Source of the DNA: a virus
Lineage: Duplodnaviria > Heunggongvirae > Uroviricota > Caudoviricetes
Reading direction: 5' to 3' (one strand)
IMG/VR virus record: IMGVR_UViG_2571042438_000008
DNA: 47,797 nucleotides
Shown in pieces: positions 320 to 47,797 of this stretch. A program made the position numbers and the translations under genes. The notes beneath the pieces were generated by a model that searched no databases, was not told the DNA's origin, and saw nothing but the letters and a program-made list of their open reading frames with translations. Every line of letters starts with the position of its first letter. Within the stretch, counting starts at the first letter, position 1.

Positions 320-3166
320 GTGAGTAAATTATTATTTACGATGACTGACGCCGGGCGTAAGGCGCTGGTTAATGCCAACAAGACTGGAACAAATAAAGTT
401 GAGATCGTTTCTGTTGGTTTAGGTAGTAGATATTATGCCACATCAACCACACAAACAAAAATAACAGATGAAATAAAGCGACTTACCACAATAGGAGGCA
501 AAGTCGTTTCTCCTGATACCATTCATGTAACTGCGAAGGATGATAGTAAAGATGAGTATGCTGTCCATACAATAGGTTTGTATACAAATAAAGGAACATT
601 GTTTGCTGTATACTCGCAAGAACAAGTAATAATAAATAAAGCATCTTCTACAATTGCTTTAATATCAAGTGATATAGCAATTAAAAATCTTGATACTAAA
701 AACATTACATTTGGTGATGTTGAGTTTATTAACCCTCCCGCAACCGAAACTGTTGTTGGAGTAGCAAGATTTGCTAATGAACAAGAAATTGATGCAGGTA
801 CAGATGATTCCCTGGCTGTTTCAGCAAAGCGGCTTAAGCAAGCTATTGTAAAACATGAGCAATCACGTAATCATCCTGATGCAACTTTAACATCAAAAGG
901 CATTGTTCAACTCAGTAATGCCACCAATAGCACGTCTGAAAAGCTCGCAGCGACGCCTAAGGCTGTTAAGGCTGCATATGACCTGGCTGACGGAAAATAT
1001 ACCGCCCAGAATGCCACCACGGCACAAAAAGGGATAGTTCAGCTCAGTAGTGCCACTAACAGTACGTCTGAAACGCAGGCGGCAACGCCAAAAGCGGTCA
1101 AGGCAGCAAATGACAACGCAAATTCACGTCTGGCGAAAAATCAGAACGGTGCAGATATCCAGGATAAATCAGCTTTTCTGGACAATGTTGGCGTTACCAG
1201 CCTGACGTTTATGAAAAACAATGGCGAAATGCCGCTTGATGCTGATCTGAATACGTTTGGTCCTGTTAAGGCTTATTCAGGTATCTGGTCTAAAGCAACA
1301 TCCACCAACGCAACACTGGAGAAAAATTTCCCGGAAGATAATGCTGTCGGTGTGCTTGAGGTTTTTGCTGCCGGCAATTTTGCAGGTACGCAACGCTTTA
1401 CCACGAGAGACGGCAATGTATACATGCGTAAACTCGCCAATAAGTGGAATGGCACTGATGGTCCGTGGGGCGTATGGCGTCACACTCAATCTGCTACCCG
1501 CCCTTTGAGTACGACTATAGACCTGAATACGCTTGGAGCCGCCGAGCATCTTGGTTTATGGCGTAACAGTAGCTCAGCTATAGCTTCATTTGCCCGCAAT
1601 TATCCGGAAGAAGGGAGCTATGCTCAGGGGATTCTCGAAGTTCTTGAAGGCGGCGGATATTCGCGAACACAGCGTTACACTACCAGTCGTGGAAATATGT
1701 ATGTACGCTGCCTTACCGCAAGCTGGGATGCATCAAATCCGCAGTGGGGACAGTGGCTAAGAATCGGCAGCCAGACTGCAAGCGGTTTCTTTGAAGGCGA
1801 TCTGAATAATCTGACCGATCCTGGTATTTACAGTGTTACAGGAAAGGCAACAAACGGTCCGATGCTGGACGCTGCTGGGGCGACATTGCTTGGGATACTG
1901 GAAGTAATCAGGCGTTTTGATGGTGTATCTGTCTGGCAGCGTTACACAACCACAGGAAAATCAGAAACCACACAGGGGCGCACTTTTGAGCGCGTCTACG
2001 CCGGGAGCACATGGACCGAATGGCGAGAAGTGTATAACTCCTTTTCGTTGCCCCTGAATCTGGGTATTGGCGGCGCAGTGGCAAAACTCACCAGCCTGGA
2101 CTGGCAGACCTACGACTTTGTGCCGGGCAGTCTGATAACCGTTCGGCTTGATAACATGACCAACATTCCCGACGGTATGGACTGGGGCGTCATTGATGGT
2201 AACCTGATAAACATCGCTGTTGGCCCAAGTGATGATACCGGTACGGGGCGCTCAATGAAGGTATGGCGCAGCACTGTAAGTAAAGCCAACTACCGCTTTT
2301 TTATGGTGCGCATTTCAGGAAATCCGGGAAGCCGCACGATCACAGCAAGACGAGTACCAATCATTGACGAAGCCCAGACATGGGGCGCGGAACAGACATT
2401 CAGCGGTGGTCTTTCAGGCGAACTATCCGGCAATGCTGCTACAGCAACAAAGCTGAAAACGGCAAGGACAATTAACGGCGTAAAATTTGACGGCTCGGCA
2501 AATATTGAAGCGTTTCCGCCAGGTGTTCCGCTGCCGTGGCCATCAGATACGCCACCTGCAGGTTATGCAATCATGCAGGGGCAGACGTTTGATAAGGCAG
2601 CATATCCGAAACTGGCTATTGCCTATCCTTCTGGTGTTATTCCAGATATGCGCGGCTGGACAATCAAGGGCAAACCCGCCAGTGGTCGGGCCGTATTGTC
2701 TCAGGAACAGGATGGCATTAAATCGCACACCCACAGTGCCAGCGCATCCAGTACGGATTTGGGTACGAAAACCACATCGTCGTTTGATTACGGTACTAAA
2801 TCAACGAATAACACAGGTGCACATACCCACAATGTATCTGGTACTGCAAATAGTGCTGGCGCACATACTCATACCGTTCCATTAAGGAGACCAAACAGTG
2901 GCGGTATGAATTTCGACTGGCTGGATGGTTCATCAAGTGGCACGGTGGTGGGGAATGGAACTGTGCCTTCTTCTGGCGCACATACCCACTCAGTATCAGG
3001 TACCGCTACAAGTGCTGGGGCACATGCACACACTGTTGGTATTGGCGCTCATACGCACTCTGTTAAGATTGGTTCACATGGACACACCATCACCGTTAAC
3101 GCTGCTGGTAACGCGGAAAACACCGTTAAAAACATCGCATTTAATTATATTGTGAGGCTTGCATAA
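320..3166 (+). CDS. Tail fibre protein (mosaic, side-tail-fibre type)
   Basis: 948 aa. Two copies of the conserved fibre repeat [24 protein letters not shown]. Three tandem ~85-aa knob-like repeats ([18 protein letters not shown] / [18 protein letters not shown] / [19 protein letters not shown]). The C-terminus carries GAHTHS/HxH repeats like T4 gp37, Mu S and lambda Stf-type fibres. It is followed by a Tfa gene. Confidence 0.9.
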
Positions 3167-4725: not shown

Positions 4726-4740
4726 ACCACGTAACGTGGT
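4726..4740. promoter_or_regulatory. Perfect ACCAC-N5-GTGGT palindrome (operator-like) upstream of the repA control region
   Basis: The sequence is ACCACGTAACGTGGT. The same 5+5 palindrome occurs at the cI/cro intergenic region (14748, 14851) and downstream of cI (13997). Confidence 0.5.
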
Positions 4741-6342: not shown

Positions 6343-6371
6343 TTGCCACATAGGAAAAGATTTCCTACCAT
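6343..6371 (+). promoter_or_regulatory. Promoter-like element TTGCCA-N17-TACCAT with spacer palindrome AGGAAA-AGA-TTTCCT
   Basis: It has the same architecture as the triplicated cassette promoters (TTTACA-N17-TATGGT with GGGAAA-AAA-TTTCC in the same spacer position). A perfect TATAAT also lies at 6378-6383. Confidence 0.45.
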
Positions 6372-6385
6372 CGTAGATATAATAA

Positions 6386-6685
6386 ATGGAGATGGTTATG
6401 GATAAAGATACTGTTTTAAAAATGTTGAATCCGGCTTGTTTAAAAAAAGCGGATGAATGGGAATCTCCTACATGTGGAGAAGTTCGGGCAGTCATTGGCC
6501 TCACCGGAATGAGTGGCTCGCAGTTGGCCAAAAAACTAGGCTTAAAAGATAGTCGCAATGTTCGCAACTGGCAGATGTTAAAGGAGTCCACATCCAGATC
6601 CAGCATTCCGTATGCAGCCTGGGCGCTGCTGTGTTACTTCGCTGGGTTAGGGTTAATCTTCATTGATAACAAAACAGATGTTTGA
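6386..6685 (+). CDS. Small HTH DNA-binding protein (XRE-like); start may be ATG 6398
   Basis: The HTH-like segment is GMSGSQLAKKLGLKDSRNVRNW. A GGAGA sits 6 nt before ATG 6398. The stop overlaps the next ORF. Confidence 0.7.
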   Translation: MEMVMDKDTVLKMLNPACLKKADEWESPTCGEVRAVIGLTGMSGSQLAKKLGLKDSRNVRNWQMLKESTSRSSIPYAAWALLCYFAGLGLIFIDNKTDV

Positions 6686-7896: not shown

Positions 7897-8181
7897 TTAC
7901 TTACCATTTTTGCGGTTTTTTTCGGACTTCATAAGCTGGCTAACGCGCCCAGGTGTGATATTTAACATGCGGCTTACTTCAGCTTGTGATCCTACTTCCT
8001 CTACTAGCGATGCAACATAGCGAGATTTTCCTGAGGAGGTTAATCCATTATATGTTGCTCGTGCGACTTTTCCCTGAGCTTCTCTCATATCAACTAATGC
8101 CTGAGCAACCTGCTCAAAACCTTTAATTGTTACTTCTGTTAATGCTCGAATAGCATCAATTTCAGATTTTGGTTTAGCCAT
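7897..8181 (-). CDS. Small DNA-binding protein with C-terminal HTH
   Basis: 94 aa with a GGAGGTG Shine-Dalgarno. The HTH-like segment is SQAEVSRMLNITPGRVSQLM. It is divergent from cassette copy 1. Confidence 0.65.
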   Translation of the reverse strand: MAKPKSEIDAIRALTEVTIKGFEQVAQALVDMREAQGKVARATYNGLTSSGKSRYVASLVEEVGSQAEVSRMLNITPGRVSQLMKSEKNRKNGK

Positions 8182-8228
8182 TTGGCACCTCCAATTGTTT
8201 AAAATGTGTTAATTGTAAAATTCAGCCG

Positions 8229-8247
8229 ATACCATGTTCAATGGTAT
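8229..8247. promoter_or_regulatory. Perfect palindrome ATACCAT-GTTCA-ATGGTAT overlapping a minus-strand promoter (TTGAAA-N18-TATACC)
   Basis: 7-bp arms with a 5-bp spacer. It overlaps the -10 and start region of the promoter for 7897..8181. The pattern is related to ACCAC-N5-GTGGT but with T/A at the inner position. Confidence 0.5.
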
Positions 8248-8339
8248 ACCATTGCTGAAATGTCTTTTTCAAGACCTTGCCAATAAGCTAAACAAAAATG
8301 TTTAATGTGCAGCCTAAAAAAGCACCAGTCACTATTATT

Positions 8340-8441
8340 TATATAATTATAGATTTATATAAAAAGTGCTTTACGGGTGGGAAAAAATTTCCTATGGTTA
8401 TACCCGAAACCGAGCGATACCCGCCCTGGTTAAACCGGAGA
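8340..8441 (+). repeat. Promoter-leader cassette, copy 1 of 3 (102 bp)
   Basis: One mismatch to 17297-17398. It consists of an AT box, -35 TTTACG (8370-8375), the spacer palindrome GGGAAAAAATTTCC, -10 TATGGT (8393-8398), and the leader ..TATACCCGAAACCGAGCGATACCCGCCCTGGTTAAACCGGAGA. Confidence 0.85.
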
Positions 8442-8448
8442 TAACCCG

Positions 8449-8829
8449 ATGAGCATGATTAAAATCCGCAAAAACGCTTTCCTTAAAATTCAAACTATCC
8501 TGGCTGGTTCTGTCGGCGTGATTTGCCGTTCTTCTTCAAGCCGCATCGATGACGGCTACGATGATGAGTATCGTGTGTCCTCGTGCGATGAGGCTTTAAC
8601 CTGGCTGAAGGAGAATCAGGAACGTGCCCAGGTATATCTGGAAACAGAGAACGGCAATCAGATGCTGCGTATTAGCGGTCGTTATGGATTTGAAACTACA
8701 TTCATGGCCTATTTTAATCAGGCTTACTTTGACAAGGAGCTGGCCTGGTACACTGACCGCATGAGCAAAAGCGAGCCAGCCCCGATTACACCGCCGAACA
8801 ATAAACCATTTTTATTCCTCGTTAAGTAA
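8449..8829 (+). CDS. Hypothetical protein (first gene behind cassette copy 1)
   Basis: 126-aa ORF starting 8 nt after the cassette GGAGA. I recognise no family. Confidence 0.6.
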   Translation: MSMIKIRKNAFLKIQTILAGSVGVICRSSSSRIDDGYDDEYRVSSCDEALTWLKENQERAQVYLETENGNQMLRISGRYGFETTFMAYFNQAYFDKELAWYTDRMSKSEPAPITPPNNKPFLFLVK

Positions 8830-9975: not shown

Positions 9976-11175
9976 TTATGGTCTGCTTTTCTGTGCCAGC
10001 TTATCAGCACATGTTTTTATCAGATCCTGTAGTGTCCTGGCTGGCAGGTTTGCATCCAGTACGCTGAGTATGCTGTTGTGATCTGCTTGGTCGACTACTT
10101 TGCCTGTCGGTGGTAGTAGCTTGAGCTGAGGATTCAGGTTTTCGTCAAAGCTGATAAGTGCTCTGGCGTTTCTGAGCAGATCAAGAAGTAAGGCTGATAT
10201 CACATTTTCCTGAGTCATTGCTGGCAGACTTAGCGCCGCTTTGGTTTTCCCTGTTGCCTTGTCAAACTCCTTGATTAGTTCCTTCCTGTAGTTCGGTTCC
10301 GTTAATAGCCGATTATGCTCTGTTGCCGCGCGGATAATCGTTTTTTCCTGGTATAGTCGTTTAGCCAGATCACGCTCGTACTGTGTTTTTAACACGCTGC
10401 TGATAGCGTTAAAGGCTTCAATGTAGGCCAGCTTGATATCTTTCACGCCTGGACCGTCGATGCTCTCCATGAGCAAGGTAAATCCGTCTTTTGTCATGCG
10501 ATAGATTGTTATTTCGCGGTCGCTTCCTTCCAGCGGTCGTTGCTCTTTAAAGAAGTGACGCGCCGCAGCCGTGCGAGGAATGCGTAGCGCATCGATGGCC
10601 ATAACGATGGAATTGTTTGTGGTGCTGAATGCCTGGGCAACATCGGCTGAGGTTGTGAGTGGCTCGTTGTTGCACACTTTAATGTAAAACATCGGTTTGG
10701 CGTTGAGCGTATCGACAACCTCACGAGCATTGCTTGGCGAGACGGTTACGGTCGCGGCCGTTTGCGCGTTCCGGCTGAAATAGCAGTCTTCCAGCCGTTC
10801 GAACACATCCCACGCTTGGTTAGTTTCAAGCATTTTGGCGTGACGTGCAGCCCCGCGTTCTGTCCAGAGAATGAGGGAGCGGGCTTTCGGGGAAATTTGT
10901 AACCCTCTTAAAGATGGTTGCACATTTTGTGAGTTACTTAAAGTAACCCGCAAATTTTGTGAGTGACTTAAAGTCACTCGCAAAGTTTTTAACTCATCGC
11001 CAGCCACTTTGAAAAAATGCTTTCCTTCAATAAAGCGGTTTGCGTTACGTGAGTAATTTTTTTTGATGTTATCAACGTCTGTGCCGTATAGCTTTGCCAG
11101 TAGTTCAGTAGTGATAACGGGGATCTGGTTATGCAGGATAGGCTGTAGGGTGTTAACGGTCGGAAGCGTTTTCAT
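9976..11175 (-). CDS. ant: Antirepressor-like protein (N-terminal ORF6N/KilA-N-like domain + Rha-like domain)
   Basis: The N-terminus IPVITTELLAKLYGTDVDNIKKNYSRNANRFIEGKHFFKV...ILWTERGAARHAKMLETNQAWDVFERLEDCYF is ORF6N-type. The middle EPLTTSADVAQAF..IYRMTKDGFTLLMESIDGPGVKDIKLAYIEAFN is Rha-type. The start overlaps the upstream ORF stop (ATGA). Confidence 0.8.
   Translation of the reverse strand: MKTLPTVNTLQPILHNQIPVITTELLAKLYGTDVDNIKKNYSRNANRFIEGKHFFKVAGDELKTLRVTLSHSQNLRVTLSNSQNVQPSLRGLQISPKARSLILWTERGAARHAKMLETNQAWDVFERLEDCYFSRNAQTAATVTVSPSNAREVVDTLNAKPMFYIKVCNNEPLTTSADVAQAFSTTNNSIVMAIDALRIPRTAAARHFFKEQRPLEGSDREITIYRMTKDGFTLLMESIDGPGVKDIKLAYIEAFNAISSVLKTQYERDLAKRLYQEKTIIRAATEHNRLLTEPNYRKELIKEFDKATGKTKAALSLPAMTQENVISALLLDLLRNARALISFDENLNPQLKLLPPTGKVVDQADHNSILSVLDANLPARTLQDLIKTCADKLAQKSRP
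10921..10980. repeat. Two tandem 30-bp repeats inside ant, each holding a 5-bp-arm palindrome (GTTAC-TTAAA-GTAAC / GTGAC-TTAAA-GTCAC)
   Basis: 10921-10950 and 10951-10980 differ at 4 positions. Two of those differences are compensatory (T:A to G:C) and preserve the palindrome. Confidence 0.8.
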
Positions 11176-11399: not shown

Positions 11400-11413
11400 T
11401 CGAGGCTAATCAA

Positions 11414-11497
11414 ATGGTGGTGAGCCGTACAGGGTTAGCCTTACCGGACACAATGACGAACCGGCGCGGATTTCTCCGCCCCTGTACGACCCACCAT
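11414..11497 (-). ncRNA. Candidate structured regulatory RNA (c4-like) in the ant operon leader
   Basis: An 84-nt three-way structure. The outer stem is ATGGTGG/CCACCAT (7 bp), the second stem GTACAGGG/CCCTGTAC (8 bp), and the inner hairpins are GCGGA-TTTC-TCCGC (11466-11479) and CCGG..CCGG (11444-11464). The loop segment AGGCUAA (minus-strand RNA) is complementary to UUAGCCU, which occurs in two flanking direct repeats GAUUAGCCUC (11402-11411 and 11567-11576). Confidence 0.35.
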
Positions 11498-11525
11498 AAT
11501 TTGGGCGTAACAGTGCTCTACGCAT

Positions 11526-11545
11526 AAAAAAACCGCTAACGCGGT
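11526..11545 (-). terminator. Rho-independent terminator (minus strand) inside the ant leader
   Basis: On the minus strand ACCGC-GTTA-GCGGT is followed by T7. Confidence 0.65.
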
Positions 11546-11658
11546 ATGCGCCATCGTGTTATTCAGGAGGCTAATCCCGGCCGTAGATTTTGCTACGGCT
11601 CGGAAAGTGTCCACCAATGGCGCATTTATGTCAATACGGCGGGATTTTAACAGAGACA

Positions 11659-11807: not shown

Positions 11808-12116
11808 CAAAAGGTAATAATAGTCCACTATTATGCTTCAAAAAATTGTGGTTCTTGTTGTGCCTGCAAACTCACAGATTGTGGGTAGGTTACTGATTTT
11901 GTGAAAATAAACGAGTTTTTTCGTTTAATTTCTTTCCTATTACTAATCTTAAAATAATCGTAAAATACCTGTGGACCTTCCCGCCGATTCGCACCCGGGC
12001 ACCGACTTTAGGGGAGGATTCTCCGTTGCCGTACATGCAAGCACAAGCAGCCGTGCTTGCTCTCGCGTTGTTTTCGTCGGTGGGGATGCCGTGAAACGGC
12101 CTGTAAGGGCCATACA

Positions 12117-12239
12117 ATGAAAAAATACTGTATGTGTATTTTTATCGTTGTTACTGGGGCTTTGTTTACGCCACATGGGGAGGGTTGGAAGATTACTGAT
12201 AACGCTCTGAATGTGACGATAAACATTAGCAGCAAGTAG
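12117..12239 (+). CDS. Small hydrophobic peptide (40 aa), candidate type I toxin or small membrane/secreted protein
   Basis: MKKYCMCIFIVVTGALFTPHGEGWKITDNALNVTINISSK. A strong plus-strand terminator follows immediately. A TAAAAT -10-like hexamer at 11961-11966 would give a ~145-nt structured 5-prime UTR. The Shine-Dalgarno is weak. Confidence 0.4.
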   Translation: MKKYCMCIFIVVTGALFTPHGEGWKITDNALNVTINISSK

Positions 12240-12244
12240 CGATT

Positions 12245-12268
12245 AGGCCCCTTCGGGGGCCTTTTTTT
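12245..12268 (+). terminator. Rho-independent terminator (plus strand)
   Basis: AGGCCCC-TTCG-GGGGCCT followed by T7. Confidence 0.8.
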
Positions 12269-12490: not shown

Positions 12491-12739
12491 TTACTTCTGG
12501 TTGTATTGAGCCTTGAGTAACTCAAAAGACTTTGTCAGCACTTCTTTCAATGACATATCCATTGAGCTGGCGAACGTTTTGTACTCGCGTTTAAATTCAG
12601 GGTCGACGTTAAACGCCATTTGTGCCCCACCTGATTTGGTTCTGGTTGGCGTTTCAGTCGGGTCGAAAACCTGCGGTTGTTCGATCGATGGCGGTACGCC
12701 TTTGCTGTTCTTCTTTGGTGGTTTTGATGGTGCGGCCAT
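12491..12739 (-). CDS. Small partition/centromere-binding protein, ParG/omega-like (disordered N-terminal tail + RHH-like C-terminus)
   Basis: 82 aa, directly downstream of parA. The C-terminus MAFNVDPEFKREYKTFASSMDMSLKEVLTKSFELLKAQ has a beta-alpha-alpha pattern. Its size and position fit type Ib par systems. Confidence 0.6.
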   Translation of the reverse strand: MAAPSKPPKKNSKGVPPSIEQPQVFDPTETPTRTKSGGAQMAFNVDPEFKREYKTFASSMDMSLKEVLTKSFELLKAQYNQK

Positions 12740-12751
12740 GTGTATCCCCTC

Positions 12752-12786
12752 TTATATAAATCTATAAAACTATAATTATATATTAT
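12752..12786. repeat. AT box (TTATATAAATCTATAAAACTATAATTATATATTAT) between parA and the parG-like gene
   Basis: Member of the dispersed AT-box family built from TATAATTATA and ATAAATCTATA words. Confidence 0.7.
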
Positions 12787-13451
12787 GCGGCAGTAGTCAG
12801 AGCCTCAAGCTGGTTGATAATCCCCTGAATAACGTCGTCTGCCTTTTTGCGTGGCGCAACGTATGAGCACTCAATGAGGCTTAAGCCCTTATCCTGAGCT
12901 TTGCTCAGAGCTGGCTTGTGGGGAATGTACTTATCGACAACAAAGTATGGCGTATTAGCCAGGTACTCTTGGGCTTCAATATAGTCAGCTTCGTTTTCAG
13001 CCGCGCCGGAAAACACCATGCAAATTTTCTTGATTGGTACACCCTTTTTAACGATGCCGTGAGCAGTGTTAACGGTGGTTTCCAGGTCATCGGTAGAGAA
13101 TCGGGTTGGCAAAATAACCATATCCAGAAATTCAGATAGCTTCGGTACTGATTCAGATGCGTAGGCACCGCCATCGACGATAACCAGGTCGTATACTTCT
13201 GATTCGATGATTTTCTGGACTTGTGATGGTGTGCCGCACGGCTGCGCCGCGATTGCTGGTTCGATATTGTTGGCCATTCTGCGTTGTACCCAACGCGTTA
13301 CCGTTCCGTTAAGCACATCCATATCGATCAGGCATACATTCCAGCCAGCCTTTGCATAAGCAACTGCTAAAGCACGGGCAATTGTTGATTTGGTTACGCC
13401 GCCTTTTCCGTTGAAAATACCTACAGAGATAGTCATTTGTCGAGGCTCCAT
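12783..13451 (-). CDS. parA: Partition ATPase ParA (type Ib, deviant Walker A)
   Basis: GKGGVTKST Walker A box. 222 aa with no N-terminal HTH extension. Confidence 0.9.
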   Translation of the reverse strand: MEPRQMTISVGIFNGKGGVTKSTIARALAVAYAKAGWNVCLIDMDVLNGTVTRWVQRRMANNIEPAIAAQPCGTPSQVQKIIESEVYDLVIVDGGAYASESVPKLSEFLDMVILPTRFSTDDLETTVNTAHGIVKKGVPIKKICMVFSGAAENEADYIEAQEYLANTPYFVVDKYIPHKPALSKAQDKGLSLIECSYVAPRKKADDVIQGIINQLEALTTAA

Positions 13452-13459
13452 GTGTTTGG

Positions 13460-13491
13460 TTATATAATTCTATAAATCTATATTTATAGAA
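13460..13491. repeat. AT box upstream of parA (TATATAATTCTATAAATCTATATTTATAGA)
   Basis: AT-box family member. Candidate centromere/operator. Confidence 0.7.
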
Positions 13492-13530
13492 CGAGGTAAG
13501 CATAACCAACTTTTTGGCTGATGAAAAGCG

Positions 13531-13565
13531 TTTTATATAATTATATAAATCTATAATCATATAAG
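13531..13565. repeat. AT box upstream of parA (TTTTATATAATTATATAAATCTATAATCATATAA)
   Basis: AT-box family member. Candidate centromere/operator. Confidence 0.7.
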
Positions 13566-13996: not shown

Positions 13997-14011
13997 ACCA
14001 CAAAATGTGGT
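13997..14011. promoter_or_regulatory. Perfect ACCAC-AAAAT-GTGGT palindrome
   Basis: Located between the cI stop and the next minus-strand gene, overlapping a TTGACA hexamer. Confidence 0.5.
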
Positions 14012-14710: not shown

Positions 14711-14747
14711 GTCTCATCAATCGTGAATGGTGGGTTATTTATACATT

Positions 14748-14762
14748 ACCACATTTAGTGGT
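14748..14762. promoter_or_regulatory. Operator: perfect ACCAC-ATTTA-GTGGT
   Basis: In the cI/cro divergent intergenic region. Confidence 0.6.
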
Positions 14763-14850
14763 TTTCACATGGTAAGACGAGAGGTGGACCACAAATAGAA
14801 GGTTATTTTTTGTTTCGCCCATTGAAAAACTCACGATATGTGGTTTTAAT

Positions 14851-14865
14851 ACCACGTATCGTGGT
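14851..14865. promoter_or_regulatory. Operator: perfect ACCAC-GTATC-GTGGT
   Basis: In the cI/cro intergenic region. Degenerate relatives lie at 14788-14804 (ACCAC-AAATA-GAAGGTT) and 14830-14844 (CTCAC-GATAT-GTGGT). Confidence 0.6.
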
Positions 14866-14884: not shown

Positions 14885-15379
14885 ATGACCTTTCAGGAGT
14901 GGGTTGACGAAAATGGAGGCCAAATTGGTGTTGCCAGAAAGTTTTGCTTTACGTCATCACTGATTGGTGCCTGGTATCGCTTCGAGAGATTCCCTCGTGC
15001 GGATAACCTGACGCTGCTGGTGGCGTATTCGGAAGGCCGGATTAACGTCCAGCAATGGGCGGCAGATTTTGCCGAACGTCAGCGCCAGCGTAGCGATGGC
15101 ACATCGGTTCGGCAGAACAAGATCAAAGGGAATCTCCCTGTTAACTGCTTATCAAGGCTGAAAGCGGTTTTCTCTGAGCTGGGGATGCCTGCGGAGCGTT
15201 GCAATCTACGCGGTCCGCGATTCATTGCTCGCTGGAAACACTCACACGTAACCGTTTCAGAGGTTCGTGATGCGATTACCGTGCTGGAGCTTAAGAATAA
15301 AGATTCCAGCGATATCGAGCTGATTCATAAGGAGATTAGCAACGCCCGGCGTTCAGCACTTGGGAGGCTTGAGGAATGA
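14885..15379 (+). CDS. Cro/YdaS-like HTH protein with C-terminal extension (first gene of rightward operon)
   Basis: Divergent from cI. The N-terminus QEWVDENGGQIGVARKFCFTSSLIGAWYRFERFP resembles the Cro/YdaS-type HTH. Confidence 0.55.
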   Translation: MTFQEWVDENGGQIGVARKFCFTSSLIGAWYRFERFPRADNLTLLVAYSEGRINVQQWAADFAERQRQRSDGTSVRQNKIKGNLPVNCLSRLKAVFSELGMPAERCNLRGPRFIARWKHSHVTVSEVRDAITVLELKNKDSSDIELIHKEISNARRSALGRLEE

Positions 15380-16857: not shown

Positions 16858-17235
16858 GTGAGACGCGATCTGGATAGCTTGTTTGAGCTATGGGCGCTGT
16901 GGGTGCGCAATGGCTGCAACGCCCGTAGCGGTTTCGCGTCGATGTTAGAAATGATGATGGTTACGCGCTGCCAGTTTACCGGAGGGGGCGGCGCACCAAA
17001 TGACTCACTGGAAACCAGTATAGAGGGAGCGGTGACGGCCCTCACGGTAGTTGATGAGACTGCGGCGCTGGTTGTCCGAATTGAATACGGGGCGTGGGAG
17101 ATTCGGGGCCTCGACATAAATGCACCGCATATTGATAAAGCCCACGCCCTTTCTCTTAGCCTCAGACAGTATCGCCGGAAGCTGGCAAAAGCCAGGGCGT
17201 ATGTTGTCGACTATTTGAAAAAGCGAAGAGAGTAA
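16858..17235 (+). CDS. Antitermination protein Q-like
   Basis: 125 aa. The LFELWALWVRNG.. N-terminus and the ..LSLSLRQYRRKLAKARAYVVDYL C-terminus resemble the Phage_antitermQ family. It is the last gene of the early operon and is directly followed by cassette copy 2. Confidence 0.5.
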   Translation: MRRDLDSLFELWALWVRNGCNARSGFASMLEMMMVTRCQFTGGGGAPNDSLETSIEGAVTALTVVDETAALVVRIEYGAWEIRGLDINAPHIDKAHALSLSLRQYRRKLAKARAYVVDYLKKRRE

Positions 17236-17296
17236 AAGTGTCATTTTGAGCTGTTTTGATGGTGTGTAGACATCGGGAACATCGAAAATCTATAAA

Positions 17297-17398
17297 TATA
17301 TAATTATAGATTTATATAAAAAGTGCTTTACAGGTGGGAAAAAATTTCCTATGGTTATACCCGAAACCGAGCGATACCCGCCCTGGTTAAACCGGAGA
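17297..17398 (+). repeat. Promoter-leader cassette, copy 2 of 3 (102 bp)
   Basis: -35 TTTACA at 17327-17332, -10 TATGGT at 17350-17355. Identity with copy 3 continues to the ATG (AATCTGATGA). An extra inverted AT word ATCTATAA lies upstream (17288-17295). Confidence 0.85.
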
Positions 17399-17404
17399 AA
17401 TCTG

Positions 17405-18472
17405 ATGAATAAACAAGTAATTATTTCTGACTGGATCAACAACCCTAACAGCCTGTTAAGCACTGATACTGGCTACCTATTACGCCATGTTAATGGTCGT
17501 ATGGTCAAAAGCGATGAGCACGAAACCTTTTTCTTTGTTGAAGACGATGGGCGTATCTATGAGGATGGTTACTCTTATGAAGCCCAAACTGGTTGTATCC
17601 CTGCGGAGCTGGTGGACGTAACAGAAGATCTGCGCAAAGCATGGCTTGAACAGCAGCAGCGCGGAGATGATTACGTAAACACCTATCAGGAACGCCAGAA
17701 CGCGCGTCTTGCCCGATATATTGCTCGTGCAGAAAAAGCCAGAAAAGAAGGTGCGGTAGCGCATAAGCGAGCGCATGACCTGTTGGATGTGATCCCGTTA
17801 GGCCAGCCGATTTTAGTTGACCATTATAGCGCGAAAGGCCATCGCCGCCGTTTGTCTAAAGCTGATGCGTTATTCAGAAAAGCGTTTGTTGAATGCGAAA
17901 GTAAAGCATCACACTACGAGAGCAAAGCCGCAGGTGTTGGTCGTAATGGAATTTCGTCTGATGATCCTGATGCGCTATTTAAGTTGCTTCGTAAGCTGCA
18001 AGGCTGCATGAAGTCACACGTCAAAATGAAGGCCGCAAATAAGGCCATTCGCAAATACAAAAAAGACCAAATACAGCAGCTTTCTGCATTAATCGATCTC
18101 AGGTTTACAGAAAGCGAAGCCAAAGAGTTACTGGCCGGAGATTTCTGTGGGCACATCGGATTCCCTTCATACGCACTGAGCAACAATAACGCCGAAATCA
18201 AACGACTACAGAGCCGTATTAAGGAGCTTGAATCGGTCAAGTCTGTAACAGGAGCACAGCGCGAAGAATACGACGGCTTTTCTATGGAGATAGATCCAGA
18301 GGATAACCGCATCCTGTTTTATTTCCCTGGCAAACCAGAGGCAAACATTCGTTCGCTGCTTAAATCACGCGCCTTTAAGTGGAGTCCAACCCGTAATGCA
18401 TGGGTTCGCAAGATTACTCCAAACGCCCTGGCTGATGCCCGATATCTAAAAGAATCGCTATTGAAAGCCTGA
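17405..18472 (+). CDS. DUF3560-family protein
   Basis: 355 aa from ATG 17405. The block GQPILVDHYSAKGHRRRLSKAD..ISSDDPDA..MKAANKAIRKY and the C-terminal FKWSPTRNAWVR fit DUF3560, a family common in plasmid leading regions. The upstream extension MVIPETERYPPWLNRRNL is just the cassette leader. Confidence 0.7.
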   Translation: MNKQVIISDWINNPNSLLSTDTGYLLRHVNGRMVKSDEHETFFFVEDDGRIYEDGYSYEAQTGCIPAELVDVTEDLRKAWLEQQQRGDDYVNTYQERQNARLARYIARAEKARKEGAVAHKRAHDLLDVIPLGQPILVDHYSAKGHRRRLSKADALFRKAFVECESKASHYESKAAGVGRNGISSDDPDALFKLLRKLQGCMKSHVKMKAANKAIRKYKKDQIQQLSALIDLRFTESEAKELLAGDFCGHIGFPSYALSNNNAEIKRLQSRIKELESVKSVTGAQREEYDGFSMEIDPEDNRILFYFPGKPEANIRSLLKSRAFKWSPTRNAWVRKITPNALADARYLKESLLKA

Positions 18473-18503
18473 CAGTAAGCCTACGGCGGGACGTCTCCCG
18501 CCG

Positions 18504-18536
18504 TATATAGAATTATATATTTATACAAATGTATAA
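18504..18536. repeat. AT box (TATATAGAATTATATATTTATACAAATGTATAA)
   Basis: AT-box family member at an operon boundary. It is preceded by the hairpin ACGGCGGGA-CGTC-TCCCGCCGT (18484-18505). Confidence 0.6.
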
Positions 18537-18549
18537 GGACGCCTCGACA

Positions 18550-18831
18550 ATGAAACGCAAAATTATTAACCCCCAAGATGTGATTAATTTCCTGACCGAT
18601 CACCCATGTTCAAAAGTGGACGTAATCGCGGAGCACATTGGTGTGTCGCAGAACTCTATGCGTTGCAGACTGAGAAGCATGGTTGCCGAAGGACAGATAA
18701 CAACCAGGAAAATAAATGGTTGCCTGTACTACTCCGCTAAACCGGAATTGCCATTTGGCATGAATCCTAACTCCATGTTGTTTAACACCTTATTAGCCAA
18801 AGTTAAGCCGTTGAGAGGGGCTGTGGCATGA
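18550..18831 (+). CDS. Winged-helix DNA-binding protein (alternative start 18529)
   Basis: INFLTDHPCSKVDVIAEHIGVSQNSMRCRLRSMVAEGQI is a MarR/wHTH-like pattern. Confidence 0.55.
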   Translation: MKRKIINPQDVINFLTDHPCSKVDVIAEHIGVSQNSMRCRLRSMVAEGQITTRKINGCLYYSAKPELPFGMNPNSMLFNTLLAKVKPLRGAVA

Positions 18832-21233: not shown

Positions 21234-21378
21234 ACATTGCTTTTTTATTGATCGATTAACCACGATATGAAGGTTTTTTTATGGGGAAACCTTGTTTTAG
21301 GTGGTAACTGGGTGTAGTGTTTCATTTAACGTAGTAAAACTGCGTTAAGCGATTACCGCGTAATTTGTTGCTTTATGA

Positions 21379-22906: not shown

Positions 22907-23030
22907 TACCGCCTGTGATTGGGTAAAGCCCATCTACCTGACTGATCACGATATCGATGTTATGGACCGCCAGACAAAGAAAGATATTCTGGCTCATAAC
23001 AGGGCATGGGAAATCAACTGCCCCAAGTAA
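22821..23030 (+). CDS. o-spanin (Rz1-like lipoprotein), overlapping the i-spanin 3-prime end in another frame
   Basis: Signal sequence with lipobox LIASC. 69 aa. Confidence 0.7.
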   Translation: MYIRVLTIWLMTMLIASCGSRGSVPVVVDTACDWVKPIYLTDHDIDVMDRQTKKDILAHNRAWEINCPK

Positions 23031-23064
23031 TATATATTTCTATAATTATATAAATATATAGTTA
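23028..23064. repeat. AT box (TAATATATATTTCTATAATTATATAAATATATAGTTA)
   Basis: AT-box family member directly after the lysis cassette. Confidence 0.6.
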
Positions 23065-23199
23065 CAACATTCTATGCGCTTTTCTCATGGGCGCACGCAT
23101 CAACCATGTTTGTCTGATATGCCGCCGCGCCCAAAAATCCTGAATTTATTGGCTGGGATTTTCGTGCGCGGCGCCACACCAGACAAACAGATCAAATAT

Positions 23200-23275
23200 G
23201 GCCCCTTAGCTCAGTGGTTAGAGCAGGCGACTCATAATCGCACGGTCATCGGTTCAAATCCGGTAGGGGCCACCA
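23200..23275 (+). tRNA. tRNA with anticodon CAU, tRNA-Ile2 (ileX-like) rather than Met
   Basis: A 76-nt cloverleaf, GGCCCCTTAGCTCAGTGGTTAGAGCAGGCGACTCATAATCGC..GGTTCAAATCC..GGGGCCACCA, with the anticodon at 23233-23235 and an encoded CCA. The 5-prime half is identical to E. coli ileX as I recall it. The acceptor stem has C4-G69 and C5-G68. Confidence 0.9.
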
Positions 23276-23483
23276 ATTCACTCTCACACATAAAGATAAG
23301 CGCGGTGGAGTTACTTCCTTCGTGCTCATCTTTATGCGTGCCTGGTGCGCATTTCGGGCGAACGTGGGGCTAAGTTACAGGCAGGGCCTGTTATCCGCAA
23401 AGGGGTAAAAGCTGGAGCGGCACGGAACTGTAGCCGTGTTACCAAAACAGCGTTGTCGGGCGATATCCGGCACACAACAGGCA

Positions 23484-23515
23484 AGGGCATTAATCAGTCT
23501 GGTTAGTGCCCTTTT
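23484..23515 (+). terminator. Rho-independent terminator candidate
   Basis: AGGGCATTA / TAGTGCCCT form a 9-bp stem with an 11-nt loop, followed by TTTT. Confidence 0.5.
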
Positions 23516-23583
23516 CGTTGTGTCTGCTGTAGAGCTGGCCAGCGTTATGACTGCCGGAGATCAGCGCCGGAGGCACAACTAAC

Positions 23584-24171
23584 ATGGAGGCAATTGCATT
23601 GTTTAATCTGATTTATGCAGATCCCCCCTGGGAATACAAAGATAAGTGTAAGGATGGGAATCGTGGAGCTGGTTTTAAGTATCCAACGATGAAAGCTGAG
23701 GATATTGCTCGTATTCCTGTCTGGCAGCTTGCTAATCCTGAATCGTGTTTGTTGGCCATGTGGTGGGTTCCGACTCAGCCAGAAGAAGCGTTGCTGGTGG
23801 TGAAAGCATGGGGATTCAGGCTTATGACCATGAAGGGCTTCACATGGAACAAATGTGGTAGCCGACAACCAGATAAGCTGGTGATGGGGATGGGGCATAT
23901 GACTCGTGCAAACAGTGAAGATTGCTTGTTTGCGGTAAAAGGCAAATTGCCGACCCGCCTTGATGCGGGGATCATTCAGTCGTTTACATCGCCTCGTCTG
24001 GAGCATTCTCGGAAGCCTGATGTGGTTCGTGACAAGCTGGTAAGGCTGTTAGGTGATGTTCCTCGTATTGAGCTGTTTTCTCGCGGTGATTTACCTGATG
24101 GTTGGCATGGCTGGGGCAACCAGTGCAATGGAGGTATCCAGTTGCATGATGCTCTCTGGCAAGTGGCATAA
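23584..24171 (+). CDS. MT-A70 family DNA N6-adenine methyltransferase
   Basis: DPPW catalytic motif (IYADPPWEY). FKYPTMK and EHSRKPD are typical MT-A70 blocks. Confidence 0.85.
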   Translation: MEAIALFNLIYADPPWEYKDKCKDGNRGAGFKYPTMKAEDIARIPVWQLANPESCLLAMWWVPTQPEEALLVVKAWGFRLMTMKGFTWNKCGSRQPDKLVMGMGHMTRANSEDCLFAVKGKLPTRLDAGIIQSFTSPRLEHSRKPDVVRDKLVRLLGDVPRIELFSRGDLPDGWHGWGNQCNGGIQLHDALWQVA

Positions 24172-24174
24172 AAT

Positions 24175-24276
24175 TATATAATTATATATTTATATAAAAA
24201 GTGCTTTACAGGTGGGAAAAAATTTCCTATGGTTATACCCGAAACCGAGCGATACCCGCCCTGGTTAAACCGGAGA
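24175..24276 (+). repeat. Promoter-leader cassette, copy 3 of 3 (102 bp)
   Basis: One mismatch to copy 2. -35 TTTACA at 24205-24210 and -10 TATGGT at 24228-24233. Confidence 0.85.
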
Positions 24277-24282
24277 AATCTG

Positions 24283-24552
24283 ATGAAAGTACAAGACCGT
24301 GAAGTAGTAAAAAACCTCCTGCAATACCTGACCTCAAAAAACCTGACGGGCAGCGTTGAGTTCCGTGAAGCGTTAAAACATTTCAACGTCACTACGGTTT
24401 ATCGTTGGGAAAACAAACATTCTGAAAGACCGTATGTGGTGGATGTTTTTGCGCCTGATATTGAGTGCGGTTTTGAGCGTCATTCGTTCAAGGAGAAACA
24501 TTCTGCTGATTTTTTTTGTGAGGTTGTATGTGCGGCAGGAGATGATGAGTGA
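24283..24552 (+). CDS. Hypothetical protein (first gene behind cassette copy 3)
   Basis: 89 aa from ATG 24283 (GGAGA Shine-Dalgarno). The upstream extension in the ORF track is the cassette leader. Confidence 0.6.
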   Translation: MKVQDREVVKNLLQYLTSKNLTGSVEFREALKHFNVTTVYRWENKHSERPYVVDVFAPDIECGFERHSFKEKHSADFFCEVVCAAGDDE

Positions 24553-24749: not shown

Positions 24750-24771
24750 ACCGTAACGATAACGAACAACG

Positions 24772-24798
24772 AGCCTCGGCAATTGCCGGGGCTTTTTT
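24772..24798 (+). terminator. Rho-independent terminator
   Basis: AGCCTCGGC-AATT-GCCGGGGCT followed by T6. Confidence 0.8.
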
Positions 24799-47261: not shown

Positions 47262-47797
47262 TATCTTTAATGTTAGCTTGTTGGATGTTTTACCTCCTAA
47301 CTTAGCTAGCGATCCCAACGTGATAGCTATGTCGAAAGCTATTGATGATGAACTACAAGCAATTAACAATTTAATATATAAGACAGAAATATATAGCGTT
47401 GTTGATAACCTGGACTCAGTTGTTCTCGATCATTTAGCTTGGCAATGGAATGCTGATACATGGAGGGATAGTTGGCCTGTATTGTTAAAGCGTTCTGTTT
47501 TTAAATCAATAATACGAACAAAGCGAATAAAGGGTACAAGGGCAGCGGTTGAAGATGTAGTAAATAGCTTGGGTGGAGAGGTAAACATAACAGAATGGTT
47601 TGAAACATCACCACCTGGCGAACCATATACAGCCTCAATTGTTGCTTCGATTAACTCTTTTGATGGTGCTGTTCCTTCGAAAGAGATGTTGGAGGATACG
47701 TTAAGAAGTATCAAGAGTGCAAAGTCGGCAAGAACACTATTTACATTTTCGCAAGCAACCAATGTTTCAGGTGGTGTTGGTATTGTCGGTGCTTTCC
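47254..47797 (+). CDS. Tail protein, P2 gpI-like (N-terminal part; runs off the window end and continues at 2..289); not in the supplied ORF track
   Basis: ATG 47254 overlaps the J stop. It translates MADIFNVSLLDVLPPNLASDPNVIAMSKAIDDEL..LDHLAWQWNADTWRDSWP..KRIKGTRAAVEDVVNSLGG, which is a gpI-family pattern. No stop is reached before the window end. Confidence 0.75.
   Translation, partial: MADIFNVSLLDVLPPNLASDPNVIAMSKAIDDELQAINNLIYKTEIYSVVDNLDSVVLDHLAWQWNADTWRDSWPVLLKRSVFKSIIRTKRIKGTRAAVEDVVNSLGGEVNITEWFETSPPGEPYTASIVASINSFDGAVPSKEMLEDTLRSIKSAKSARTLFTFSQATNVSGGVGIVGAF
47547..47797. repeat. Terminal overlap: exact copy of bases 1-251 (circular assembly artefact or circular permutation)
   Basis: Read directly: both segments start GGTTGAAGATGTAGTAAATAGC and end ..GTCGGTGCTTTCC. 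Confidence 0.95.

Follow-up and report, generated by a model that had tools for sequence, protein, structure and literature searches.

Here we describe a repeated regulatory cassette in a 47,797-nt phage genome of the class Caudoviricetes (IMG/VR record IMGVR_UViG_2571042438_000008), the whole of which is referred to below as the window. The cassette is 102 nt long and is present three times, at 8340-8441, 17297-17398 and 24175-24276. We lean towards reading it as a modular regulon promoter that two proteins would repress, the centromere-binding protein of the partition system encoded by the element itself and an autoregulated helix-turn-helix (HTH) protein, and whose transcripts would open with a 5' hairpin. 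Comparison with related phage-plasmids shows four separable predicted elements, which are conserved in position. From lineage to lineage each of them changes along with one particular gene, except for the hairpin, where the changes are compensatory. Two DNA operators and a promoter would account for most of what is conserved, and only the hairpin and Shine-Dalgarno part is predicted to act after initiation.

The three copies are 98-99% identical and differ only at cassette positions 13 (G/G/T in copies 1/2/3) and 36 (G/A/A), which excludes a chance origin. Copies 2 and 3 are identical for a further 11 bases, up to and including the ATG; outside the AT-rich part on one side and the ATG on the other, the flanks of the three loci are unrelated. 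A preliminary description of this DNA had reported the three copies, had regarded the downstream genes as unrelated, and had proposed that the repeat is regulatory DNA or RNA rather than coding sequence, with conservation reaching into the transcribed leader; all of this was borne out, the second point by family assignments to a 126-aa protein (phrog_8090), a 355-aa DUF3560 protein and an 89-aa protein (phrog_6143). The promoter parts were likewise present as described, with a -35 of TTTAC(A/G), read as TTTACG in copy 1 and TTTACA in copies 2 and 3, a 17-bp spacer containing the palindrome GGAAA-AAA-TTTCC and a -10 of TATGGT. Judged by its sequence, the cassette promoter is of sigma-70 type and fairly strong, and a promoter scan lists copies 2 and 3. 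A GGAGA Shine-Dalgarno lies 7-8 nt 5' of the ATG. The parts of the three copies, all on the plus strand, are as follows.

8331..8364, copy 1 iteron array, 3-4 8-bp units (~AwTTATAk) of the same type as at the par operon
8361-8369, copy 1 A-tract AAAAAGTGC, just 5' of the -35
8370..8398, copy 1 core promoter, with -35 TTTACG at 8370-8375 and -10 TATGGT at 8393-8398
8380-8392, copy 1 spacer palindrome GGAAAAAATTTCC
8408..8431, copy 1 leader hairpin, AACC(G)-A-GCG-AUACC-CGC-CC-(U)GGUU, predicted start at ~8405-8407
8437..8451, copy 1 GGAGA and ATG (8449) of the 126-aa gene, 8449-8829
17282..17326, copy 2 array (4 units) and A-tract, beginning 47 nt past the stop of the Q-like gene
17327..17355, copy 2 core promoter, TTTACA/17 bp/TATGGT, with the palindrome at 17337-17349
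17365..17388, copy 2 leader hairpin, predicted start at ~17362-17364
17394..17407, copy 2 GGAGA and ATG (17405) of the DUF3560 gene, 17405-18472
24166..24204, copy 3 array and A-tract, directly after the stop of an MT-A70 methyltransferase gene (23584-24171)
24205..24233, copy 3 core promoter, TTTACA/17 bp/TATGGT, with the palindrome at 24215-24227
24243..24266, copy 3 leader hairpin, predicted start at ~24240-24242
24272..24285, copy 3 GGAGA and ATG (24283) of the 89-aa gene, 24283-24552
24771-24794, terminator-like hairpin closing the two-gene unit of copy 3

Bases 1-251 of the window recur exactly at 47547-47797, and the window is therefore taken as a circular genome of ~47.5 kb written with an overlap, a terminally redundant genome being the alternative. 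It is a complete phage-plasmid of a kind common in E. coli. For maintenance it encodes RepA, a HigBA toxin-antitoxin pair and a short Walker-type ParA followed by an 82-aa protein, and its phage genes comprise a CI-like repressor, an early-right operon, lysis genes, a terminase, myovirus head and tail genes and a Hin invertase. The cassette is found in at least 65 plasmids of ~48 kb, nearly always in three copies per record, from E. coli (including ATCC 25922), E. albertii, E. fergusonii, Klebsiella and Salmonella. Relatives of the window are also known as infective Yersinia phages; three Yersinia pestis phages were 99% identical to it over the stretch tested, and a literature search on these Yersinia phages found no paper.

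For comparison, relatives were retrieved by way of the 125-aa Q-like protein encoded just upstream of copy 2, and plasmids were added. As a contig scan with the Q-like profile gave one locus only, the comparative set was drawn from viral contigs and plasmids. Six diverged lineages were compared, the window's kind included: A (E. coli and the window), A' (Salmonella), B (L013-16 and L021), C (L020), D (L023) and E (the Serratia plasmids L026 and L027); L018, L019, L022 and L024 are relatives without the cassette core. Between E. coli and Salmonella the cassette is ~90% identical, as against 45-68% for the proteins it drives, which indicates purifying selection on the cassette. The Salmonella relative has an additional gene ahead of copy 2 and a divergent gene behind copy 3.

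The AT box noted in the preliminary description is present, but it is more than AT-rich DNA. It consists of 8-bp units (~AwTTATAk) in direct and inverted orientation, and arrays of this kind also stand between genes at five places outside the cassettes. A search for three TATA boxes spaced 8 bp apart gave 25 overlapping positions that fall into only 8 loci (8340, 12755, 13463, 13534, 17289, 18506, 23031 and 24167), all intergenic, against a chance expectation of 0.08. Three of these arrays bracket the parA-like gene and the gene of the 82-aa protein, two of them flanking the par promoter and one lying between the genes.

12491..12739, minus strand, 82-aa ParG-like protein, candidate iteron binder, with a basic disordered tail, a predicted strand and two helices
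12752..12785, unstranded, array between the parA-like and parG-like genes
12783..13451, minus strand, 222-aa Walker-type ParA/ParF-like partition ATPase (CbiA/ParA/MipZ families; phrog_164, "ParA-like partition protein")
13460-13493 and 13533-13564, unstranded, two arrays flanking the par promoter
within 13460..13564, minus strand, par promoter, TTTTCA, 17-bp spacer, TATGCT
18497..18538, unstranded, array lacking the cassette core, preceded by a hairpin and directly followed by a gene starting at 18550
23022..23071, unstranded, array likewise lacking the core, upstream of tRNA-Met (23200-23275)

The organisation of the par locus is that of ParG- and omega-type partition systems. The open reading frame (ORF) of 82 aa begins 44 nt after the stop of a short Walker-type ParA that has no N-terminal DNA-binding domain, and arrays of fixed 8-bp period, in direct and inverted orientation, lie upstream of the par operon. 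In an AlphaFold2 monomer model of the 82-aa protein, residues 1-40 are disordered and helices span residues 47-59 and 62-80. All relatives carry arrays at several intergenic sites, and their units are lineage-specific.

Window, TTATAkAw
Lineage B (L013-16, L021), ATATA type
Lineage C (L020), TTAAAGAw
L018, L019 and L022 (without the cassette core), TTAAATAw
Lineage E, TTAAATAw in L027 and a mix of TTAAATAA and TTAAAGAA in L026
Lineage D (L023), CAGAAA
L024 (without the cassette core), ACGAAA

In each of the six genomes examined for this (the window, L015, L020, L018, L023 and L024, with L019 left out of the comparison), the genome's own unit type flanks its parA promoter. The predicted beta-strand that precedes the two helices of the 82-aa protein varies with the unit, reading MAFNV, LLLRL, MNFNV/LNFNV, LNFKV or LNFKR, and the MNFNV and LNFNV strands belong to two nearly identical TTAAA units. 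The putative recognition helix of the Q-like protein, in contrast, does not track the unit: lineages B and C, L024 and L025 have nearly the same helix, and L018 and L019 have different ones despite their common unit. The Q-like protein was thus rejected as the iteron binder. Because the strand of the ParG-like protein follows the units whereas the Q-like helix does not, we infer that it is the 82-aa ParG-like protein, from the type Ib partition system that the element itself encodes, which binds the arrays.

Arrays without a core were also seen in L015 (10366-10414) and L023 (10394-10451), and these, like the two in the window, often stand right before a Shine-Dalgarno or after a hairpin; the L023 array, in which four units are direct and two inverted, overlaps another promoter immediately after the Q-like gene. 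The par promoter of the window (13506-13517 region) is laid out like the cassette promoter, with an array, AAAACGC, TTTTCA, a 17-bp spacer and TATGCT. Its spacer holds a different palindrome, CCAACTTTTTGG at 13506-13517, and no such palindrome is present in the par promoters of L015 and L020.

The palindrome in the cassette spacer, present as described earlier, was found to occur a fourth time. The window has four perfect GGAAA-N3-TTTCC sites, one in each cassette and one at 6353-6365. Each of these 5-3-5 palindromes takes up the final 13 bp of a spacer and directly adjoins the -10. The site at 6353-6365 belongs to the promoter of the 99-aa HTH gene; the cassette genes and the HTH gene alike carry this palindrome in their core promoters.

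6343..6371, plus strand, HTH gene promoter, TTGCCA, 17-bp spacer, TACCAT, with the palindrome GGAAAAGATTTCC at 6353-6365 and with neither array nor hairpin
6386..6685, plus strand, 99-aa HTH protein, candidate autoregulated repressor acting at the palindrome, probable true start 6398

In L002 (16342), L020 (3181), L026 (27004), L027 (16278) and L011, too, the HTH gene is preceded by a promoter with the palindrome. In lineages B and D the HTH gene lies instead inside a cassette-driven operon. The palindromes by lineage are as follows.

Salmonella (A'), cassette GGAAAATATTTCC, HTH gene's own promoter GGAAATATTTTCC
C (L020), cassette GGTCAAAAAGACC, HTH gene's own promoter GGTCATAAAGTCC
E (Serratia), cassette AGGAAAAAAAGTCC, HTH gene's own promoter AGGATAAAAAGTCC
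B, cassette GGACTAAAAGTCC, HTH gene inside cassette-driven operon
D, cassette GGGCCAATGGTCC, HTH gene inside cassette-driven operon

The half-sites are GGAAA, GGACT, GGTCA or GGGCC by lineage, and the recognition helix of the HTH protein varies alongside. E. coli and Salmonella, which have a common half-site, share the putative helix DSRN(V/L)RNW, and the corresponding segment is DPRNIRKW in lineage B, EARQIRRW in C and DDRTVRRW in D. This HTH-like segment of the 99-aa protein is conserved, varying by lineage, and the protein has a full-length match to phrog_8351 (no known function). In L018, L019 and L024, where no HTH homologue was detected in the fetched locus, arrays are present and neither the cassette core nor the leader motif was found. 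A palindrome between the -35 and -10 of a promoter with a 17-bp spacer occupies a classic repressor position. We infer that the palindrome is the operator of the 99-aa HTH protein, which would repress its own promoter through the same site. The HTH gene at 6386 and the parG-like gene had both been named beforehand as possible regulators, and the comparative data point to the products of these two genes.

Other candidate regulators were considered and rejected. A CI-type repressor is not expected to bind the palindrome, as the CI operator ACCAC-N5-GTGGT is found at 14748, 14851, 13997 and 4726 and not at the cassettes. This motif has 5 perfect matches against 0.04 expected (among them 4726-4740, 13997-14011, 14748-14762 and 14851-14865) and marks the divergent CI/early promoters, the region upstream of a 124-aa gene and a site ~37 nt upstream of the repA start, which suggests that the immunity repressor may also control plasmid replication. 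The divergent 94-aa HTH gene (7897-8181, minus strand) was discarded as a regulator because it is absent from relatives; a palindrome ATACCAT-GTTCA-ATGGTAT at 8226-8250 overlaps its predicted promoter and is probably its own operator.

The transcribed leader carries a hairpin whose fold is kept across lineages A, A', B, C, D and E despite sequence differences. It has a lower stem of 4-5 bp, one unpaired 5' base (usually G), an upper stem of 3-4 bp, a loop of 3-6 nt of free sequence and two unpaired 3' bases (usually AA). In a MAFFT alignment of 19 leaders, 88.8% of cells were paired, as against 12-40% when the partners were slid by 1-3 columns; changes on both sides were seen in 5 of the 8 pairs, and none of 500 shuffles of this alignment reached its score. 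With 30 distinct leaders from the six lineages the values were 89.6% and 13-39%, in an alignment that was fitted to the model and so favours the structure. RNAalifold independently predicts the same helix, and the minimum-energy fold of each lineage has the same topology, starting at +3/+4, with the position counted 7 nt from the -10 and the transcription start itself predicted. As G-U pairs occur on the sense strand only, the pairing is that of RNA. The compensatory changes show that the predicted structure is under selection, and the first leader hairpin of the preliminary description (AACCGAGCG/CGCCCUGGUU) was in this way upheld by a search of related phage-plasmids. In every lineage a GGAG-type Shine-Dalgarno follows 5-7 nt past the hairpin and is unpaired in the predicted folds.

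A covariance model built from the 19-leader alignment found three copies in the window, three in the Salmonella plasmid L002, three in each of the Serratia plasmids L026 and L027, 2-4 in the lineage B loci, two in L012 (a partial Salmonella-type locus), two in L020 and one in L023, with no others besides. The search gave no extra copies in the window and none in L018, L019, L024, L022 and L025. The three Salmonella copies have common substitutions relative to E. coli, and the copies of one genome therefore evolve in concert. Rfam 15 gave nothing on the cassette, with the whole window searched at the gathering score and the cassette at E<=10. On the comparative evidence the leader hairpin is thus a covariation-supported RNA motif without an Rfam match.

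The remaining leader features put forward earlier did not withstand comparison. The direct repeat ATACCCG-N10-ATACCCG is present in the window, but neither the Salmonella relatives nor any other lineage has it, and it was rejected as a functional element. Of two supposedly competing hairpins, the second (CUGGU-UAA-ACCGG) had 44% of cells paired, the same as its slid controls, and is absent from the minimum-energy folds. A small RNA target is not supported either: the hairpin loop varies freely, even among the copies of one genome, which argues against a small RNA or any other loop-reading partner, and duplex energies of the leader with C4- and IsrK-like RNAs were equalled or bettered by 63/300 and 32/300 shuffled leaders, respectively. 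The window has Rfam matches above the gathering score to C4 antisense RNA (11413-11501, minus strand), IsrK (11526-11599, minus strand) and ryfA (11971-12267, plus strand), just upstream of a gene for a 399-aa ORF6N/Rha-type antirepressor (9976-11175, minus strand). The C4/IsrK region looks like P1 immI-type antisense control of an antirepressor in a phage-plasmid other than P1.

From these elements a working of the cassette can be proposed, in which three unrelated transcription units would have acquired the same four-part control region. The ParG-like protein would coat the array (~-75 to -45) beside the UP-like A-tract and would most likely repress, and the arrays flanking the par genes would be the likely centromere and operator there. 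The HTH protein would occupy the spacer palindrome and repress both the cassettes and its own promoter. Once transcription had begun, the bipartite hairpin, 2-3 nt from the predicted 5' end, may shield the mRNA 5' end from decay and keep the ribosome site free of the downstream coding sequence, so that mRNA stability and translation would be evened out and any gene behind the cassette expressed alike. In the plasmid (lysogenic) state, with both repressors present, the three units would be low, and in a newly infected cell, or where the repressors are titrated, they would fire together. The near-identity of the copies would follow from every part except the hairpin loop being a recognition site, and recombination between copies probably homogenises them as well.

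Several points weigh against this dual-repression reading. The assignments of proteins to sites come from co-occurrence and covariation over ~6 lineages and thus from few independent events. The 99-aa HTH protein has no Pfam match and matches phrog_7950 ("transcriptional repressor") weakly, with E 3.6e-4. For the 82-aa protein a ribbon-helix-helix fold is putative: in a PDB profile search its sole ribbon-helix-helix match was SvtR at E~1, Foldseek with the monomer model was uninformative, and hhalign to TP228 ParG (an approximate sequence) gave 26% probability, with the strand and both helices in register. Protein binding at the arrays could activate rather than repress. In most lineages an array follows the Q-like gene, and the arrays could serve the Q-like protein instead. 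The transcription starts are predicted, the stabilising role of the hairpin is a guess, and stem conservation within a lineage exceeds structural need, so a protein could be reading the hairpin.

The possible service to the Q-like protein leads to a quite different account, in which the cassettes would be late promoters akin to lambda PR', with a promoter-proximal qut site, and the 125-aa protein (16858..17235, plus strand) would carry RNA polymerase through terminators into the lysis and morphogenesis genes. The gene closes the early-right operon after the Ref and DUF1064 genes, and copy 2 starts 47 nt past it, so that the earlier comparison with the position of PR' holds for the window; cassettes also directly follow the gene in L020, L026 and L027, but this is not so in every lineage, only an iteron array following it in lineage B. 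The likeness of the protein to Q21 is remote. An AlphaFold2 model with a mean pLDDT (predicted confidence) of 77 gave Q21 chains as top Foldseek matches over the full length (probability 0.96), and then sigma region 4, but with E 0.23 and a structural (TM) score of ~0.5; Q21 itself is a sigma-region-4-like protein, and proteins of its type bind direct repeats of 8-bp subsites (bioRxiv 10.1101/651190). The 125-aa protein had no Pfam match at E<=0.01 and nothing relevant in a PDB profile search, and two of the 27 members of its small family match PF06530 below threshold (E 0.065), leaving the Q-like identity plausible but unproven. Strong terminator-like hairpins at 21377 (before the lysis genes) and at 24771 and 25470 (downstream of copy 3) would suit an antiterminator, and could also be ordinary operon ends. 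Loading of an antiterminator, as suggested earlier for the leader, would however call for a -10-like pause element after the start, and no conserved one was found across the window and its relatives, the hexamer after the -10 being TATACC in the window and AGTAAC/GACAAC, CTATTC, TATCTC, GTCCCC or ATCTCT in relatives. The stretch from the -35 to +20 holds no direct 8-bp repeat, the repeat in the spacer is inverted, and the 8-bp arrays, being upstream of the -35, are too distant from a promoter-proximal paused complex. The Q-like recognition helix covaries with neither DNA element. Copy 1 drives one 126-aa gene and not a late gene, and in lineage B the Q-like gene lies ~7 kb downstream of the cassettes (6.6-8.8 kb in L015), which drive small accessory operons that include the HTH gene. 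We consider this account decidedly improbable.

The protein that could be reading the hairpin belongs to an explanation that we regard as unlikely, although of the three rivals it is the one we would weigh most seriously: the hairpin would be the operator of a phage or host RNA-binding regulator of translation or processing, giving coordination after initiation, and the upstream DNA would be ordinary promoter parts. An asymmetric internal loop, a 5' G opposite AA, is conserved in lineages B, C, D and E, the stems hardly vary in lineage B, where the coding regions do differ, the spacing of hairpin and Shine-Dalgarno is constant, and the hairpin is confined to genomes with the HTH gene. On the other hand, the internal loop is different in the E. 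coli lineage, and the free variation of the terminal loop, the unsequestered Shine-Dalgarno, the lack of an Rfam match and the C4/IsrK complementarity at shuffled level, all mentioned above, do not fit an RNA operator; the HTH protein is the only candidate RNA-binding protein that co-occurs with the hairpin. The near-identity of the copies could, finally, come from recent copying and gene conversion rather than from regulatory need, the cassette being a selfish or recombinational promoter module like the promoter-early stem-loop (PeSL) cassettes, for which there is documented precedent (PMC2839356, PMC4122927). The concerted substitutions within one genome agree with this, as do the 2-4 tandem cassette-ORF units of lineage B (L013-L016 and L021), whose number and downstream genes vary between close relatives, and the loss of homology around or downstream of copy 3 in 11 of the 65 plasmids. 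Gene conversion alone, however, leaves unexplained the palindrome at the HTH promoter, which is not a cassette, the match of array type with the par locus in every lineage examined and the compensatory changes in stem pairs, and the purifying selection seen between E. coli and Salmonella also speaks against it. As a sufficient explanation it is thus very improbable, and as a process it is compatible with the dual-repression reading and no true alternative to it.

The design proposed here, with a partition protein as repressor and a second repressor at the -10, parallels the omega and KorA/KorB regulons. In omega of pSM19035 (inc18) and KorB of RK2, the partition centromere-binding protein is a global repressor whose repeats lie beside the -35; the promoters so repressed in RK2 are also bound at the -10 by a second small repressor, KorA, and are thereby under dual control. 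Unlike the cassette elements, these systems reside on conjugative or broad-host-range plasmids and not on phages; the omega repeats are 7-bp heptads and the KorB sites 13-bp palindromes, and neither is known to come with a shared transcribed leader. The leader hairpin resembles the stem-loops of the ompA 5' untranslated region in that it stands a few nt from the (predicted) mRNA 5' end with an accessible ribosome site next to it. The likeness of such 5'-terminal stem-loops rests on 5'-end-dependent decay by RNase E and RppH, and because of this a protective 5'-terminal hairpin with an insulated ribosome site would be the most economical reading. Unlike an ompA-type stabiliser, the window hairpin has a conserved internal loop that would be unneeded for that role, and its distance from the 5' end depends on a predicted start. 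As in phage P1, where the sites of C1 are spread over many operons, the sites of one regulator would be dispersed over a plasmid prophage; the dispersed sites of P1 are, however, those of its immunity repressor, and here the CI-type operator (ACCAC-N5-GTGGT) is separate and absent from the cassettes.

Among partition systems the closest comparison is with TP228, whose ParG is centromere binder and transcriptional repressor in one protein (PMC3130281, PMC7308502) and acts at tetramer boxes with regular 4-bp AT spacers in direct and inverted orientation (PMC3130281). As in TP228, a small protein gene directly follows a short Walker ParA, its product having here a predicted flexible basic N-tail and then strand-helix-helix, and short boxes of 8-bp period, direct and inverted, form two clusters upstream of the par genes as at OF/parH. 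Unlike TP228, the window has arrays also at five further promoter regions across the phage genome and boxes of TATA rather than ACTC type, and the similarity to ParG is not significant. The Q cassettes of lambda and phage 21 share with copy 2 the gene of a small protein, here putatively sigma-region-4-like, followed by a strong promoter, with terminators (in the window, terminator-like hairpins) downstream; the cassette departs from them in its inverted repeat in the spacer, its loci unrelated to the Q-like gene and its want of a conserved pause element. PeSL cassettes of T4-type phages, which lie between variable small ORFs and at junctions of gene gain or loss (PMC2839356, PMC4122927), are likewise short conserved repeats of promoter and stem-loop. 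They are promoter-terminator composites of virulent phages, whereas the stem-loop of the window lies in the leader just past the start and two operator types are added. From all these systems the cassette differs in belonging to a temperate phage-plasmid, in combining two operator types and a structured transcribed leader in one portable unit, and in being near-identical three times per genome while having diversified into at least five specificity sets.

How plasmid maintenance is coordinated with the phage programme in such widespread elements is poorly understood. If the dual-repression reading is true, one partition protein and one small repressor would hold several unrelated operons, forming an RK2- or pSM19035-like regulon inside a phage. 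A more far-reaching version, which we offer tentatively and with some doubt, is that the partition centromere-binding protein is a genome-wide regulator with arrays at at least 8 promoter regions, which would couple segregation to the phage programme, and that the co-evolving repressor and the previously undescribed leader hairpin complete a portable establishment-regulon cassette that fires in a naive cell and can be recombined before any gene. The 126-aa, DUF3560 and 89-aa genes behind the cassettes would then be candidates for establishment or anti-defence functions. The cassette would also provide a compact natural expression module, with a UP-like tract, a promoter, two orthogonal operator types (at least five specificities), a 5' hairpin and a strong ribosome site.

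Some further observations were made among the relatives. The Serratia sp. plasmid L027 (NZ_CP074139.1) has a backbone of RepA, HTH, ParA/ParG-like, CI, Ref, DUF1064 and Q-like genes with three cassettes, combined with lambda-like siphovirus tail genes and not a myovirus tail, so that the control module is common to different virion types. In the Serratia marcescens plasmid L026 (CP083756.1), a family member carries blaTEM-1 beside a recombinase gene at 23202-24062. An E. coli conjugative plasmid with cfr (L028, NZ_CP037908.1) holds at 3001-3048 a 48-bp cassette fragment comprising the array and -35, which is accompanied by HigBA genes and the 94-aa gene and is truncated by IS26, a piece of phage-plasmid captured in a resistance plasmid. 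In L020, the 74-nt stretches at 14744-14817 and 15105-15178, at the starts of adjacent ORFs, are 100% identical and look like a recent gene duplication. In the window itself, an ORF of the tail-fibre region contains imperfect tandem repeats of a GAHTH-type peptide motif at 2816-3037.

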